From IMG/VR virus record IMGVR_UViG_2681813273_000006: a stretch of 6,030 nt of DNA. One strand, 5' to 3'. Within the stretch, counting starts at the first letter, position 1; each line of letters begins with the position of its first letter. Of this stretch, positions 1 to 6,030 are shown in pieces. The position numbers were made by a program, and so were the translations under genes. The notes under the pieces are model-generated. The model was not told the DNA's origin, searched no databases, and saw only the letters and a program-made list of their open reading frames with translations. The DNA comes from a virus. Taxonomy: Duplodnaviria; Heunggongvirae; Uroviricota; Caudoviricetes.

Positions 1-151
1 AATGGGTTAAGTGATAACAGGTGTCTGGAAATATAGGGGCAAATCCAGCGTTCATCAGCCCCCGCATTGCCGACAGGATCACAGACGGGGGGCGCAACTG
101 GTTGTCGTTCAACTGGCCCAGCTACCGTTCTTGTATCAGAGGTGTGGCTGC

Positions 152-1543
152 ATGACAACACCAGTCTGGCGTAATGATGACCTGGAAGGCGCTGTCATTG
201 GCGCATTCTTTCTGCGTGGGGCAGATCATGAAGTGATGGATATTCTGATCACACTACCGGCGGACATTTTTTCTGTACGAGCGTATCGGGATATCTACAC
301 AGGCATCTGCAGACAGGCCCGTGTTTCAGGAGTGATTGACCCCGTGCTGTTGTGTAATGAGATGCCGGAACTTGCCCCGGTGATTACTGATACCGGGCGT
401 AAAACCTGGGTGAAGTCTTCACTGGAGCACTATGTTGCAGCGTTGCGGCGCAATGCCGCACTGCGCGATGCAGAAAAAACACTGAATGAGGCGCTGCAGA
501 AATTACGTGATGCGCATACCTGTGAAGCAGCTGAAGATGCCCTGAAGGATGCGCAGAACATGATGGTCACACTGTCGACAGGAAAGGGCGTCATTCAGCC
601 GGTACATATTGATGATGTGCTTCCGGAAGTGGTTGAGCGTGTTGAATGCCGGAATCAGGGGCTGGAGAAATCCAGGACGTTGATGACCGGTATTGATGAA
701 CTGGACGCAAAAACAGGCGGTATGGAGCCCGGAGACCTGGTATTCATTGCCGCCCGTCCTTCGATGGGGAAAACCGAACTTGCGCTGGACATCATCGACA
801 AGGTGACTGAGCAGGGGCATGGTGTGCTTCTGTTCACCATGGAGATGGCGAACATCCAGATTGGTGAACGTATGGTGTCTGCGGCTGGAGGGATGCCAGT
901 ATCACGCCTGAAATCTGTGGCTCACTTTGAAGATGAAGACTGGGCGCGTTTCTCACAAGGGGTGGGGCGGATGACCGGGCGCAATATCTGGATGGTGGAC
1001 CAGGCGAACCTGACCATTGATGAGATATGCGCAACAACGAAACACCATCTGATTAAACATCCGGAAACGGCGCTGGTGGTGGTTGATTATCTCGGGCTGA
1101 TAAAAACCCGAACCACGGGGCGTCATGACCTTGCCGTGGGTGAAATCTCAAAGGGGCTTAAAGGCCTGGCAAAATCCGGTGGTTTTCCGTTGATTGCGCT
1201 GAGCCAGCTCTCCCGCGGTGTGGAGTCCAGACCCAATAAACGTCCCATGAACTCAGACCTGAAAAATTCCGGAGAAATAGAGGCGGATGCAGACATCATT
1301 CTGATGCTTTACAGGGATGAAGTGTACAACCCGGATACACAGGCTACAGGCATAGCAGAAATTAATATCACGAAACAACGTAACGGTTCTCTGGGGACGA
1401 TTTACCGGCGTTTTTATAACGGACATTTTCTGCCTGTGGACCAGGAAAGCGCACAGGTTCTTTCCACCCCAATGCGGCAGCCCCAGCCGCGCAGATACAG
1501 CAATACACGTACCGACAGCAGTAAGATGGAGCGTTTCTTTTGA
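152..1543 (+). CDS. Phage-encoded DnaB-family replicative DNA helicase (P22 gp12-like). Start could instead be the GTG at 11.
   Basis: Long ORF with recognisable DnaB motifs: Walker A-like IAARPSMGKTE, and [43 protein letters not shown] closely resembling the E. coli DnaB C-terminal region. ATG at 152 has a GAGG Shine-Dalgarno 9 nt upstream. The ORF stays open back to GTG at 11, just after an in-frame TAA at 8-10. Confidence 0.85.
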   Translation: MTTPVWRNDDLEGAVIGAFFLRGADHEVMDILITLPADIFSVRAYRDIYTGICRQARVSGVIDPVLLCNEMPELAPVITDTGRKTWVKSSLEHYVAALRRNAALRDAEKTLNEALQKLRDAHTCEAAEDALKDAQNMMVTLSTGKGVIQPVHIDDVLPEVVERVECRNQGLEKSRTLMTGIDELDAKTGGMEPGDLVFIAARPSMGKTELALDIIDKVTEQGHGVLLFTMEMANIQIGERMVSAAGGMPVSRLKSVAHFEDEDWARFSQGVGRMTGRNIWMVDQANLTIDEICATTKHHLIKHPETALVVVDYLGLIKTRTTGRHDLAVGEISKGLKGLAKSGGFPLIALSQLSRGVESRPNKRPMNSDLKNSGEIEADADIILMLYRDEVYNPDTQATGIAEINITKQRNGSLGTIYRRFYNGHFLPVDQESAQVLSTPMRQPQPRRYSNTRTDSSKMERFF

Positions 1544-1554
1544 ACAACCAGACA

Positions 1555-1647
1555 ATGACTTTTACCTCTGAACAATTGCGTAAACACGCGCAGGAAATGT
1601 TGCGACAGGCGGAACAACTGGAAAAAACAGGTGTAACAAAAGATGCC
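1555..1647 (+). CDS. 5' fragment of the small helical protein gene, cut off by the N-run; identical to 2780-2872
   Basis: ATG at 1555, 12 nt after the helicase stop. Sequence is identical to the start of the complete copy at 2780-3022 and runs into the gap at 1648. Confidence 0.5.
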
Positions 1648-1658
1648 NNNNNNNNNNN
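1648..1658. other. Assembly gap (11 N)
   Basis: Run of n characters in the sequence; sequence on either side is not collinear. Confidence 0.95.
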
Positions 1659-1682
1659 GTATTAAGACTATCACTTATTTAA

Positions 1683-1844
1683 GTGATACTGGTTGTCTGG
1701 AGATTCAGGGGGCCAGTCTACGGACATTTTCTGCCTGTGGACCAGGAAAGTGCACGGGTGCTTTCCACTCCCATGAAGCCCGGCAATCCGCGCAGATACA
1801 GTAATAAACGAACTGACAGCAGTAAGATGGAGCGTTTCTTTTGA
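1683..1844 (+). pseudogene. Helicase remnant in paralogous copy B: 53-codon in-frame ORF joining an N-terminal-proximal segment to the helicase C-terminal tail
   Basis: 1679-1720 aligns at about 70% identity to window 7-50 (TAA-GTG-ATA...). 1721-1844 aligns to the helicase 3' end 1420-1543 ([18 protein letters not shown]) in the same frame with the same stop. No internal stop codons. The roughly 1.4 kb helicase core is absent. Confidence 0.45.
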
Positions 1845-1855
1845 ACAACCAGACA

Positions 1856-2098
1856 ATGACTTTTACCCCTGAACAATTGCGTAAACACGCGCAGGAAATG
1901 CTGCGTCATGCTGAACAACTCGAAAAAACGGGCATAACAAAAGACGCTATCCGTAAAGATATGGTACCCGCGCTTCGGGAACTGATGCAGGCGAAGCATC
2001 GCGCACAGAAAGCAGTAGATGAGCTGGTGGACTGTGTGGCAGAGCTGGAAACCAGAGTCGGAAAGTTTGAAAAACTGGTGCAGGAGGTGCTGCGCTGA
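1856..2098 (+). CDS. Small alpha-helical phage protein (80 aa), copy B, function unknown
   Basis: ORF with ATG at 1856. Protein is about 92% identical to the copy at 2780-3022, with differences mostly conservative (I/V, R/K, L/M). Its stop overlaps the rusA start in a TGATG arrangement. Confidence 0.6.
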   Translation: MTFTPEQLRKHAQEMLRHAEQLEKTGITKDAIRKDMVPALRELMQAKHRAQKAVDELVDCVAELETRVGKFEKLVQEVLR

Positions 2099-2438
2099 TG
2101 CGCCATGAGTTTATTTTACCTTATCCGCCGACGGTGAATACTTACTGGCGACGTCGTGACAACACATATTTTGTATCAAAAGCCGGTGAGCGTTATCGCC
2201 GGGATGTGGCGCTTATTGTCCGTCAGCAGCGACTGAAATTAAGCCTGTCCGGAAGACTGGCGATAAAGATTATTGCAGAGCCACCGGATAAGCGCCGTCG
2301 TGACCTGGACAATATCCTGAAAGCACCACTGGATGCACTGACACATGCGGGAGTGTTAATGGACGATGAGCAGTTTGATGAAATCAATATCGTTCGTGGT
2401 CAGCCAGTATCTGGTGGACGTCTGGGGGTGAAGATTTA
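2098..2438 (+). CDS. rusA: RusA-family Holliday junction resolvase, copy B, 3' end truncated at the ambiguous base / contig join
   Basis: Translation matches RusA motifs ([41 protein letters not shown]). The ORF-track product reads through the n at 2439 into helicase-tail sequence, which is not a real protein. Confidence 0.6.
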
Positions 2439-2439
2439 N

Positions 2440-2768
2440 GCGGTGTGGAGTCCAGACCCAATAAACGTCCCATGAACTCAGACCTGAAAAATTCCGGAGA
2501 AATAGAGGCGGATGCAGACATCATTCTGATGCTTTACAGGGATGAAGTGTACAACCCGGATACACAGGCTACAGGCATAGCAGAAATTAATATCACGAAA
2601 CAACGTAACGGTTCTCTGGGGACGATTTACCGGCGTTTTTATAACGGACATTTTCTGCCTGTGGACCAGGAAAGCGCACAGGTTCTTTCCACCCCAATGC
2701 GGCAGCCCCAGCCGCGCAGATACAGCAATACACGTACCGACAGCAGTAAGATGGAGCGTTTCTTTTGA
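2440..2768 (+). pseudogene. 5'-truncated copy of the helicase C-terminal coding region; likely an assembly duplicate, not an independent gene
   Basis: Identical to helicase 1215-1543 and begins immediately after the n at 2439. The listed 2445-2768 ORF simply starts at an internal Met. Confidence 0.55.
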
Positions 2769-2872
2769 ACAACCAGACAATGACTTTTACCTCTGAACAA
2801 TTGCGTAAACACGCGCAGGAAATGTTGCGACAGGCGGAACAACTGGAAAAAACAGGTGTAACAAAAGATGCC
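2440..2872 (+). repeat. Exact 433-bp direct repeat of 1215-1647 (helicase 3' end plus start of the small ORF); probable contig overlap
   Basis: Base-by-base comparison of 1215-1647 with 2440-2872 shows identity at a constant offset of 1225. The repeat is bounded by the single n at 2439 and, in the first copy, by the N-run at 1648. Confidence 0.85.
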
Positions 2873-3022
2873 ATTCGTCGGGATATGGTGCCAGCGCTCA
2901 GGGAACTGATGCAGGCGAAACATCGCGCACAAAAAGCGGTGGATGAGCTCGTTGATTGTGTGGCAGAGCTGGAAACCAAAGTTGGAAAGTTTGAAAAAAT
3001 GGTGCAGGAGGTGCTGCGCTGA
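2780..3022 (+). CDS. Small alpha-helical phage protein (80 aa), copy A, function unknown
   Basis: ORF MTFTSEQLRKHAQEML...VQEVLR with ATG at 2780. Stop overlaps the rusA ATG (TGATG). No clear Shine-Dalgarno, so the start is uncertain (TTG at 2765 is an alternative). Confidence 0.65.
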   Translation: MTFTSEQLRKHAQEMLRQAEQLEKTGVTKDAIRRDMVPALRELMQAKHRAQKAVDELVDCVAELETKVGKFEKMVQEVLR

Positions 3023-3393
3023 TGCGCCATGAGTTTATTTTACCTTATCCGCCGACGGTGAATACTTACTGGCGACGTCGTGGCAGCACATATTTTGTAT
3101 CAAAAGTTGGTGAGCGTTATCGCCGTGATGTGACGCTAATTGTTCGCCAGCAGCGGCTGAAATTAAACCTGTCCGGAAGGCTGGCGATAAAGATTATTGC
3201 AGAGCCACCGGATAAGCGCCGTCGTGACCTGGACAATATCCTGAAAGCACCACTGGATGCGCTGACGCATGCCGGACTACTCATAGACGACGAGCAGTTT
3301 GATGAAATCAATATTGTGCGCGGTCAGCTCGTTCCTGGTGGGCGACTGGGCGTGAAGATTTATGAAATCACAGGTGATAACGATGGCGCGTGA
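3022..3393 (+). CDS. rusA: RusA-family Holliday junction resolvase (endodeoxyribonuclease RusA)
   Basis: 123-aa ORF with RusA signatures, including the acidic motif RRRDLDN and the DDEQ / GGRL region; resembles E. coli prophage RusA. AGGAGG lies 10 nt upstream of the ATG. Confidence 0.85.
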
Positions 3394-3769
3394 TATTCAG
3401 CAGGTTATGGAACGGTGGGGGGCTTGGGCTGCAAACACTCATGAAGATGTATCCTGGGCGTCGATCGCTGCTGGTTTTAAAGGGTTAATTCCGTCGAAAG
3501 TGAAATCACGCCCTCAGTGTTCTGATGATGATGCAATGATAATTTGTGGCTGTATGGCCCGGTTGAACAAGAAAAATCAGGATTTGCACGATTTGCTGGT
3601 GGATTATTACGTAGGTGGAATGACTTTTATGAGTCTGGCACGGAAACATGGGTGTTCGGATACCTGTATTGGCAAGCGCCTGCAGAAAGCGGAAGGGGTT
3701 ATTGATGGCATGTTGATGATGCTTGATATCCGGCTGGAGATGGACAGATACGTAGAACGAATTATGTAG
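3383..3769 (+). CDS. Late-gene antiterminator Q (phage 82 / DLP12 quuD-like family)
   Basis: [28 protein letters not shown]...[16 protein letters not shown]...GKRLQKAEG strongly resembles my recollection of E. coli prophage Q (QuuD-type) proteins. ATG at 3383 has an AGGTGA Shine-Dalgarno 5 nt upstream and overlaps the rusA stop. A strong promoter follows at once. Confidence 0.8.
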
Positions 3770-3773
3770 GTGC

Positions 3774-3803
3774 TTGACCAGACACATTGTCCGGGGCTAT
3801 ATT
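3774..3803 (+). promoter_or_regulatory. Sigma70 late promoter (PR'-like) immediately downstream of Q
   Basis: TTGACC (3774-3779), 18-nt spacer, TATATT (3798-3803). The position directly after the Q stop matches lambdoid late-promoter/qut architecture. A 6-bp hairpin CGCCAG/CTGGCG sits at 3811-3828 in the initial transcribed region. Confidence 0.6.
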
Positions 3804-3864
3804 CCTCACGCGCCAGCAAAATCTGGCGTCGGGATTGGAACCCCGGATAGAGACCGCGACAGAC

Positions 3865-3889
3865 ACACGCCGCGAGCGTGTTTTTTATT
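3865..3889 (+). terminator. Intrinsic terminator (tR'-like), ending a roughly 77-nt leader RNA from the late promoter
   Basis: Stem ACACGC / GCGTGT with loop CGCGA, followed by TTTTTTATT. Confidence 0.6.
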
Positions 3890-4243
3890 GTCGTATGCAC
3901 GCGCACATCTGAATTATGGTGGGGCGCATGGGGGAGCTGAAAAGCTCGCCGGTCGGTTTCCCGGTAGTTCCAACCCTGTGCGTCTCACCACCCGATGATT
4001 GGAACCTGACGGTGTTGACAGTTTCAGGTTTGCAGTTTACATTTCCCCGCGGTGCTCAAAACACCTCGAAAGCGGTATCCACACCCGATAGCCATGTGGT
4101 TTTTTTGTGTCCAGAATTCTTGGTTTATGACCGGGTGTGCGGCTAATACAATACCAGCAATGGAAATACGCCCGCCGACTTTCGACGGTTTTGAGCGCCC
4201 GGTCACCCTCTCAAAAGGGGTAAATCAAAATATTCGAAAGGAC

Positions 4244-4813
4244 ATGTCTATGAATCGCACGTCTATTGAAAAACTCCCGTCACTTACGCATAACCATCTT
4301 CCTGTCATGACAACAGAGCTGCTGGCTGATTTGTACGGAACAGAGCGCCAGCGTTTGACAAACAATTTCAATCGAAACAAAGAACGGTTTATAGAAGGTA
4401 AACATTTTTTCCTGATAGAAGGTGATGCGTTACGAGAGTTGAAGAACGAAAACTCTTTAAGAGTTTCTGTGAAAATTGCCCGTAACGTTCGCTCCCTCAT
4501 CCTCTGGACAGAACGTGGCGCAGCCCGTCACGCCAAAATGCTCGAAACCGATCAGGCGTGGGAAGTGTTCGAAAAACTGGAAGACTGTTATTTCAACCAG
4601 AAACAGCCACCAGCGGCACAAAACACATCTATCGAAAATGATGGATGCGCATTACTGAGCCACTTCGATAAACACGGTCAGGTTGAGTTCACGGAAAAGG
4701 TACCCGCCGATGCGATGGTATGTACTCTGGAACGGTTTAAATTTTATCTGGAGCAACACGGGTGGATCGTTGCCCGTAAAGAGCAACTGGTGGAGCGGTT
4801 GATGCGGTTTTAA
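4244..4813 (+). CDS. ORF6N-domain (KilA-N-related) putative DNA-binding / antirepressor-like protein; start may be ATG 4250
   Basis: N-terminal region VMTTELLADLYGTERQRLTNNFNRNKERFIEGKHFFLIEGDALRELKN ... LWTERGAARHAKML fits the ORF6N domain pattern as I recall it. AAGGA Shine-Dalgarno lies 7 nt before ATG 4250. The ORF-track extension back to 4052 has no start codon and covers leader sequence. Confidence 0.65.
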   Translation: MSMNRTSIEKLPSLTHNHLPVMTTELLADLYGTERQRLTNNFNRNKERFIEGKHFFLIEGDALRELKNENSLRVSVKIARNVRSLILWTERGAARHAKMLETDQAWEVFEKLEDCYFNQKQPPAAQNTSIENDGCALLSHFDKHGQVEFTEKVPADAMVCTLERFKFYLEQHGWIVARKEQLVERLMRF

Positions 4814-4889
4814 AAATTTTTTCCGAAAACTTTACGATCGTAAAAAGTTGAATATCCTGTTAAGAGTGGTTACTACGCCACACAGCTTA

Positions 4890-4915
4890 AACCCGCCGAT
4901 GAGCGGGTTTTTTTA
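4890..4915 (+). terminator. Intrinsic terminator downstream of the ORF6N gene
   Basis: Stem ACCCGC / GCGGGT with loop CGATGA, followed by TTTTTTTAT. Confidence 0.65.
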
Positions 4916-4964
4916 TACCTGAAAAACGGCACAGGACGTTAAACGTGCTGGTGGTCAGATGAGT

Positions 4965-4993
4965 TTGCAGATGTGATGACATATGGTTATTAT
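4965..4993 (+). promoter_or_regulatory. Sigma70-like promoter directly upstream of the tRNA cluster
   Basis: TTGCAG (4965-4970), 17-nt spacer, TATTAT (4988-4993). The first tRNA starts 10 nt downstream. Confidence 0.45.
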
Positions 4994-5002
4994 TCTGCCT
5001 CC

Positions 5003-5079
5003 GGCCCTTTAGCTCAGTTGGTCAGAGCGAGCGACTCATAATCGCCAGGTCGCTGGTTCAAGTCCAGCAAGGGCCACCA
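5003..5079 (+). tRNA. tRNA-Ile2 (anticodon CAT, lysidine type, ileX/ileZ-like); tRNA-Met not formally excluded
   Basis: Manual cloverleaf: acceptor GGCCCTT/AAGGGCC, D-arm GCTC..GAGC, anticodon loop CTCATAA, T-arm GCTGG TTCAAGT CCAGC, discriminator A plus CCA. Closely resembles E. coli ileX. Confidence 0.8.
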
Positions 5080-5080
5080 A

Positions 5081-5157
5081 CCACCACTAGCTCATCCGGA
5101 TAGAGCATCAACCTTCTAAGTTGACGGTGCGAGGTTCGAGTCCTCGGTGGTGGGCCA
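5081..5157 (+). tRNA. tRNA-Arg (anticodon TCT, reads AGA)
   Basis: Manual fold: acceptor CCACCAC/GTGGTGG, anticodon stem TCAAC/GTTGA with loop CTTCTAA, T-arm CGAGG TTCGAGT CCTCG, discriminator G plus CCA. Confidence 0.8.
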
Positions 5158-5159
5158 GC

Positions 5160-5235
<76 letters not shown>

Positions 5236-5238
5236 TAT

Positions 5239-5313
<75 letters not shown>

Positions 5314-5926
5314 GCGAGATTTGAGACGAAGGTTGTTATTTGCACTGACACAATATTGTGTGGGAATGTCTGACTCCTTACCATCTCCTGTTCTGTGATG
5401 TTGTTTTGTTGCAGTTCCAGTGCTCTTTTTTCAGCACCAGAATGGTGCATTGTCGGTCAGGTTACGTAGTGAACCTCTGGCAGGGGACTGATGATTCATC
5501 ATTCTGGTGTTGTAAATATCTCTTCGGACAACTTACAAAATATTCTAAGCAAACCCCGGGAACACACTCTTAACTGCCTTGGCTGGCGGTTTTTTGTACA
5601 GCGCTCGGTATGTGTGAGCTGGAAATCAGATTTTGCATGGACTGGAATCATGCTGTTATTTAGGGGCGAAGAACTGGCTTTTTCTTCCGCCTTCTCACCA
5701 GTAACGATTAGAAAAATAATGAAATGCCCCCCTCCGGGGAGGAGGACCGTAGAAAAAAGGACCCGCCAGCAAAAACATTGGGGATGAACAGCTTTCGCTA
5801 CTCAGATTGCTGGCGGGTAAAGTTCCTCATGAATTAAGAATGCTACGCGATCTTTTTTAATGGAAATGAAAATTATTGTCAATTAGTCGTGCGTGTTTTT
5901 TCATACAATATTGGTAAAGGTGATTC

Positions 5927-5960
5927 AGGCCATCAGAGTTTTGCTGATGGCCTTTTTTCT
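5927..5960 (+). terminator. Strong intrinsic terminator
   Basis: 10-bp perfect stem AGGCCATCAG / CTGATGGCCT with 7-nt loop AGTTTTG, followed by TTTTTT. The reverse strand lacks a T-run, so it is + strand specific. Confidence 0.75.
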
Positions 5961-6030
5961 TTCCGATAGCACAGGTCTGTCGGGGGGGTGCCCCTATTAA
6001 GTTGTCAAGCATGTTATGACCCCTGCGGGG

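Follow-up and report, generated by a model that had tools for sequence, protein, structure and literature searches.

False duplication in genome assemblies has been described previously (PMC2864568), and gaps lying between the members of a duplicated pair on one scaffold are among its listed hallmarks (PMC9516828). The window studied here (the whole stretch of DNA analysed, 6,030 nt) resembles the cases in these reports in that identical copies are separated by gaps on one scaffold, in that the duplicated sequence is single-copy in better assemblies from the same lineage, and in that a diverged copy of the same region has been assembled alongside. It differs from them in that the genome is haploid and bacterial, and in that the interloping copy is not an allelic haplotype but derives from a paralogous prophage remnant at another chromosomal site.

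In gene content, the window resembles the replication/nin/Q region of lambdoid prophages in Shigella sonnei and E. coli, in which genes for a DnaC-like protein, a DnaB-like helicase, an 85-aa ORF, RusA, and the antiterminator Q are followed by tRNAs and lysis genes (Table 1). Closed chromosomes, including that of S. sonnei 2015C-3566, are 99.9-100% identical to the sequence of the prophage concerned, hereafter prophage A, and phage phiP27 shows 93% identity over 45% of the window; Stx-converting phages are also among the relatives. Prophage A differs from the S. sonnei/E. coli region by strain-specific IS insertions alone: the dnaC-like gene carries IS2, and an IS110-family element lies at 5987/5988. 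The likeness to IS2, a member of the IS3 family, lies in the termini (Table 1), in a 5-bp target duplication at a second insertion in a related prophage remnant (hereafter B), and in the annotated transposase with programmed frameshift of the matching element. The window retains the IS2 termini alone, the IS2 bodies having been collapsed by the assembler.

Our results indicate that the window is most likely a short-read draft scaffold of a Shigella sonnei-type genome, composed of three contigs each of which stops at repeats. We consider it highly probable that the 433-base duplication it contains is an assembly artefact, in which the contigs of prophage A were left unmerged and a contig of B was misplaced between them.

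Table 1. Features of the window, with strand and supporting observations
Feature	Position	Strand	Observation
IS2 right end, last 47 nt	1-47	+	47/47 to the 1330-nt IS3-family element of locus L003; 46/47 to K-12 IS2A
DnaC-like 'ATP-binding protein' replication gene, 3' end	48-151	+	interrupted by the IS2 insertion
Replicative DnaB-like helicase, prophage A, 463 aa	152-1543	+	Pfam DnaB_C (PF03796), 7.8e-73
Repeat copy 1	1215-1647	+	suffix of piece 1; single-copy in related loci
11-N scaffold gap, piece 1/piece 2	1648-1658	.	read as a false join; closed genomes pass from 1647 to the equivalent of 2873
IS2 left end, first 62 nt, inverted	1659-1720	-	identical to L003 1801-1861; 61/62 to K-12 IS2A
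Helicase B gene, last ~124 nt	1721-1844	+	aligns to A 2645-2768; 100% to closed locus L058 from 9881
85-aa ORF, B allele	1841-2098	+	79/85 identical to the A allele; exact protein at the B locus of closed chromosomes
rusA, B allele, ending ~34 nt short of stop	2098-2438	+	Pfam RusA, 2e-16
Single-N scaffold join, piece 2/piece 3	2439	.	read as a false join
Repeat copy 2	2440-2872	+	prefix of piece 3; 3' part of helicase A and start of 85-aa ORF A
85-aa ORF, A allele, complete	2765-3022	+	same position in closed genomes
rusA, A allele, 123 aa	3022-3393	+	Pfam RusA, 7.5e-15
Antiterminator Q, 128 aa	3383-3769	+	Phage_antitermQ (PF06530), 2.2e-52; 128 aa in closed genomes
IS110-family (ISEc20-like) terminus, 43 nt	5988-6030	.	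100% to ISEc20-family elements; piece 3 ends inside

Overlap geometry and contig ends

When the window was compared with itself, positions 1215-1647 and 2440-2872 were identical at 433 of 433 nt, and the match extends by 0 nt outward on either side (C at 1214 against N at 2439, and N at 1648 against A at 2873). Just two runs of N are present, 11 N at 1648-1658 and one N at 2439, and they split the window into pieces 1 (1-1647), 2 (1659-2438, hereafter block B), and 3 (2440-6030). Piece 1 ends with the repeat and piece 3 begins with it, and an N bounds each copy. Both the identity of the two copies and the placement of the gaps, 11 N after the first copy and a single N before the second, are as the first-pass annotation had claimed. 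An exact repeat of 433 nt within 6 kb cannot have arisen by chance.

Repeats are found at all of the outer contig ends (1-47, 1659-1720, 2438, and 5988-6030). The full IS2 of which the first 47 nt are the right end is found upstream in closed genomes, IS2A 1-1331 corresponding to 6921-8251 of closed locus L051. Position 48 aligns to 4001 of the related locus L002, within an annotated ATP-binding protein CDS (3230-4108), and matches in the E. coli database also begin at query position 48, within 'ATP-binding protein'; IS2 junctions as in the window were not found in any complete E. coli genome searched. At the 3' end, all relatives read 'CGGGATATGTATCAG...' at 5988, into the lysis region, instead of the IS110-family end. 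The last 43 nt had no match among the related loci and were identified as an ISEc20-family end in E. coli genomes; at locus L066 the 43-nt match is the edge of an IS110-family element which interrupts an autotransporter gene. The junction between phage and IS110 sequence gave 0 matches in genome contigs, as did an exact 40-mer, and the lone IMG/VR match to the 3' junction (L090) was set aside, as it shares just 5448-6030 in a different context. An 82-nt exact repeat common to block B and a third rusA variant (in sister draft L045) ends at position 2438, and the next base differs; sequence shared over 82 nt that then diverges makes this a branch point of the kind where an assembly graph breaks. 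These break points are those expected of short-read assembly, and not of a biological event.

Pieces 1 and 3 in related and closed genomes

Closed chromosomes of 4.8-5.0 Mb were retrieved by lookup of the exact RusA protein of prophage A, which is present on 99 index blocks with contigs longer than 1 Mb. Four of them (L051, L053, L054, and L055) match window 1-1647 at 8205-9851 and window 2440-5987 at 9419-12966 without a single difference (100%), and 9419-9851 is the sole 433-nt copy in these loci. More broadly, the 433-mer was counted once in each of the 19 related loci that carry it (20-kb loci searched). The merged sequence, 1-1647 plus 2873-5987 (4762 nt), is base-exact in four closed, N-free chromosomes and in three independent draft contigs. 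The same layout is seen in CP022457.1 (L056), the chromosome of S. sonnei 2015C-3566 (PMC6456863). Window 1-1647 matches it at 100%, whereas piece 3 matches at 99.94% with two alignment gaps (one or two small indels), so that the merged sequence is not base-exact there; the 433-mer nevertheless occurs once, and 1101-1647 plus 2873-3400 is exact.

Draft data agree with this arrangement. A 40-mer spanning 1647/2873 has an exact match in 39 IMG/VR contigs, and in 11 of these pieces 1 and 3 form one unbroken stretch at 99.9-100% identity; in L020, for example, window 1-1647 corresponds to 19-1665 and window 2440-5987 to 1233-4780. The junction across 2439, with any base allowed at the N, gave 0 matches in IMG/VR. 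In complete E. coli genomes of ~92% identity, query 48-3800 is covered by 2528 bp, that is, 3753 minus the 1225 redundant bases, which supports merging.

These genomes also establish the gene order. At prophage A in closed genomes it is IS2, helicase, 85-aa ORF, RusA, and Q, and in the complete E. coli genomes (~92%) it is ATP-binding (DnaC-like) protein, helicase, 85-aa ORF, RusA, and Q. The helicase A gene (1392 nt) is annotated in L002 and predicted as 463 aa in L051. The 85-aa ORF matched no Pfam family above its cut-off, and both rusA alleles are predicted to encode a RusA Holliday junction resolvase (PF05866), at 56.1 bits for A and 61.1 bits for B against a cut-off of 22.8. The first-pass annotation had preferred to merge contigs 1 and 3 into the order helicase, small ORF (the 85-aa ORF), rusA, and Q, and this proposal holds: the locus is single-copy and continuous, at 100% in four closed chromosomes, with the genes in that order.

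It could be argued that the 433 nt is a dispersed repeat of prophage A and another prophage, in which case pieces 1 and 3 would run into it from different loci and need not be neighbours; the right end of piece 2 does behave in this manner, stopping at the 82-nt repeat shared with the third rusA variant. However, the repeat is accompanied by prophage A's own outer flank in 35 of 35 IMG/VR contigs for its first 45 nt and in 37 of 37 for its last 46 nt, and pieces 1 and 3 are continuous in closed chromosomes, at 100% in four. From these contigs and the 20-kb loci of the closed chromosomes, we find a dispersed repeat exceedingly unlikely. On the same counts, positions 1215 and 1647 were rejected as genomic repeat borders or branch points, so that the length of the overlap would be a product of the software rather than of the genome.

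Once corrected, the assembly comprises one contig of 4805 nt (1-1647 plus 2873-6030) and a separate contig of 780 nt. We do not regard the duplication as a genomic feature, nor as anything biologically new, and the significance of the locus is limited to quality control. A literal reading of the scaffold would add genes that are not real, namely another helicase fragment, another 85-aa ORF, and a rusA that is truncated and frame-fused; it would also misplace a prophage remnant and leave the real 85-aa ORF truncated at the gap. It is an example of how paralogous prophages and IS elements mislead scaffolders in Shigella-type genomes.

Block B and its chromosomal locus

The first-pass annotation had described the whole of 1659-2438 as a paralogue of about 90% identity. 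This is correct for 1720-2438, which aligns to 2644-3362 gaplessly at 642 of 719 positions (89.3%), but not for 1659-1720, which is the inverted IS2 left end. At the protein level, the first 113 aa of RusA B are identical to RusA A at 104 of 113 positions.

The true locus of block B was found by exact match of the 85-aa B protein to closed chromosomes. Block B is identical at 780 of 780 positions to L058, L060, L062, and L064, and lies ~1.6 Mb from prophage A on both CP104423.1 (A at 912,754-933,125 and B at 2,523,238-2,543,495) and CP045526.1 (A at ~1.84 Mb and B at ~0.20 Mb), in agreement with the earlier suggestion that contig 2 belongs to a second related prophage. In closed L058, helicase B contains a reverse-oriented IS2 flanked by a 5-bp target duplication (CGGAC), and this IS2 is itself split by an IS21-type element; beyond IS2, just ~42 nt of helicase B is left in closed genomes. 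B is an IS-riddled, decayed remnant of a prophage related to A. Past 2438, in all B-type contigs and in L001, rusA B continues 'CCCCATAATGCATGA...' into a gene for a 273-284-aa Antiterm protein (PF03589; 284 aa at the closed B locus), not Q. If the duplication is an artefact, block B followed outward from ~2300 would be expected to continue 'CCCCATAATGCATGAAGAGC...' to an Antiterm-type gene.

Block B might alternatively stem from contamination by a second strain or from a sample that was mixed, and B-type and 100%-A-type contigs do stand under different genome identifiers in IMG/VR. However, IMG/VR is limited to contigs predicted to be viral, so absence there says little, and CP104423.1 and CP045526.1 each carry exact A together with exact or 1-mismatch B on one chromosome. 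As A and B occur together on closed chromosomes, contamination is unnecessary, and we give it almost no credence.

A genuine structural variant would have the order as written in the window. In this case, a B cassette (IS2 end, helicase tail, 85-aa ORF, and rusA) would have been inserted in A and 433 nt of A duplicated in the process, with recombination of an IS2-associated or template-switching kind as a conceivable route; IS2 ends are indeed present, and IS elements drive rearrangement in Shigella-type genomes. However, both junctions consist of N rather than sequence, the junction is found in no related closed or draft genome, and block B ends at an assembly-graph branch point. Nor does the geometry agree with known routes, as the target duplication of IS2 is 5 bp and not 433 bp, and homologous exchange between A and B would connect 2438 with the equivalent of 3363 rather than with 1215. 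Accordingly, we regard such a variant as very unlikely. Less likely still is a move, confined to one strain, of the IS2-bounded B cassette into A, giving a partial triplication of helicase tail, ORF, and rusA at which short reads broke at both junctions. The genuine tandem partial duplication that the first-pass annotation had offered as its alternative likewise found no support, its junctions being N and the arrangement being absent from closed genomes.

Proposed origin of the scaffold

The overlap geometry, the single-copy state in closed genomes, and the true location of B are observed directly, whereas the cause of the misplacement is something we infer. In the artefact we favour, contigs 1 and 3 are overlapping outputs of a single locus (in lambdoid prophage A, the replication/nin/Q region), whose 433-nt overlap was left unmerged, and contig 2, derived from remnant B, would have been inserted between them with N spacers. 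Prophage A and block B have exact runs of 31, 53, 32, 83, and 80 nt in common; given such matches, the longest of 83 nt, the B contig could be linked to A through read pairs or by mapping to a reference, and short reads could be mis-mapped or a de Bruijn graph tangled. Moreover, the neighbours of B are repeats (IS2 on one side and the rusA/antiterminator repeat on the other), which leaves the 780-nt contig without unique links, and a scaffolder guided by read pairs or by a reference could insert it where prophage A is broken. Gap-filling or contig extension of A from both sides may then have written the same 433 nt twice.

Sister drafts in IMG/VR contain many single-N joins. We rejected the view that these are all simple suffix-prefix overlaps: exact duplicates of 38-1460 nt do flank them, but not in a clean suffix-prefix geometry, and their use here is circumstantial. 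In L045 and L047, the third rusA variant is joined by one N beside a B block, an adjacency absent from closed genomes.

The loci compared here are rich in IS1, IS2, IS600-like, IS4, and IS21 genes, and the B locus lies near an IpaH-type gene (LRR_TTSS plus NEL). The density of IS elements, together with the IpaH-type gene near B, fits Shigella.

Mosaic boundary at the rusA 3' end

In addition to the rusA alleles of prophage A and of block B, the latter from a second related prophage remnant, sister genomes carry a third rusA variant (L045 1657-1995 and L047 4532-4870). This variant shows 91% identity to the B allele overall, and its last 82 nt up to the equivalent of window position 2438, the very point where the homology between A and B also stops, are identical to B. 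Because these end points coincide, 'AAGATTTA', close to the rusA end, is a recurrent mosaic boundary preceding different antiterminator genes. The 85-aa ORF upstream of rusA (see table) occupies this place in all relatives examined. It uses a TTG start and overlaps with the stop codon of the helicase gene; its Pfam search gave no family above the cut-off.

Features flanking rusA and the antiterminator gene Q
Feature	Window position	Remark
85-aa ORF	1841-2098 and 2765-3022	between helicase and rusA, conserved
c4-a1b1 targets	3797-3849	Rfam, above gathering score
isrK	3810-3886	Rfam, above gathering score
C4 antisense RNA	3912-3995	Rfam, above gathering score
sRNA-Xcc1	4129-4212	Rfam, above gathering score
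ORF6N-domain gene	4250-4813	beyond the four RNA matches from Q

RNA matches and tRNA genes downstream of Q

Four Rfam matches lie in window 3797-4212, flanked by Q and the ORF6N-domain gene. Judged from these matches, the region looks like a P1-type C4/antirepressor-style RNA control module located in the leader of a lambdoid prophage's late operon. Further downstream, but before the lysis genes, four closely spaced tRNA genes (Met-CAT, Arg-TCT, Thr-TGT, and Gly-TCC) occupy 5003-5313; Stx-type phages likewise carry tRNA genes between Q and the lysis genes.

Insertion elements in prophage A

Of the eight closed relatives, three (L050, L052, and L057) have the DnaB-like replicative helicase gene of prophage A split by a ~1.26-kb IS3-family element, IS600-like as judged by gene content, at the equivalent of window position 384 (locus 7322-8584). 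Thus, IS activity in prophage A is ongoing. In the window itself, an IS110-family (ISEc20-like) element is inserted at 5987/5988, 3' of a G run and 5' of the holin gene, a site at which all closed relatives lack it. The same junction is found in one further IMG/VR contig, L090 (reverse complement, 10991-11573), where the sequence upstream is unlike prophage A. This points to one of two things: the element targets a specific site, or the two sequences have a late-region module in common.

Single N characters in sister drafts

Lone N characters occur in many sister IMG/VR draft contigs (L007, L014, L033, L038, and L044-L049). Several of these N characters have exact duplicates of 38-1460 nt on their two sides, so other false joins or duplications may have come from the same assembly pipeline.
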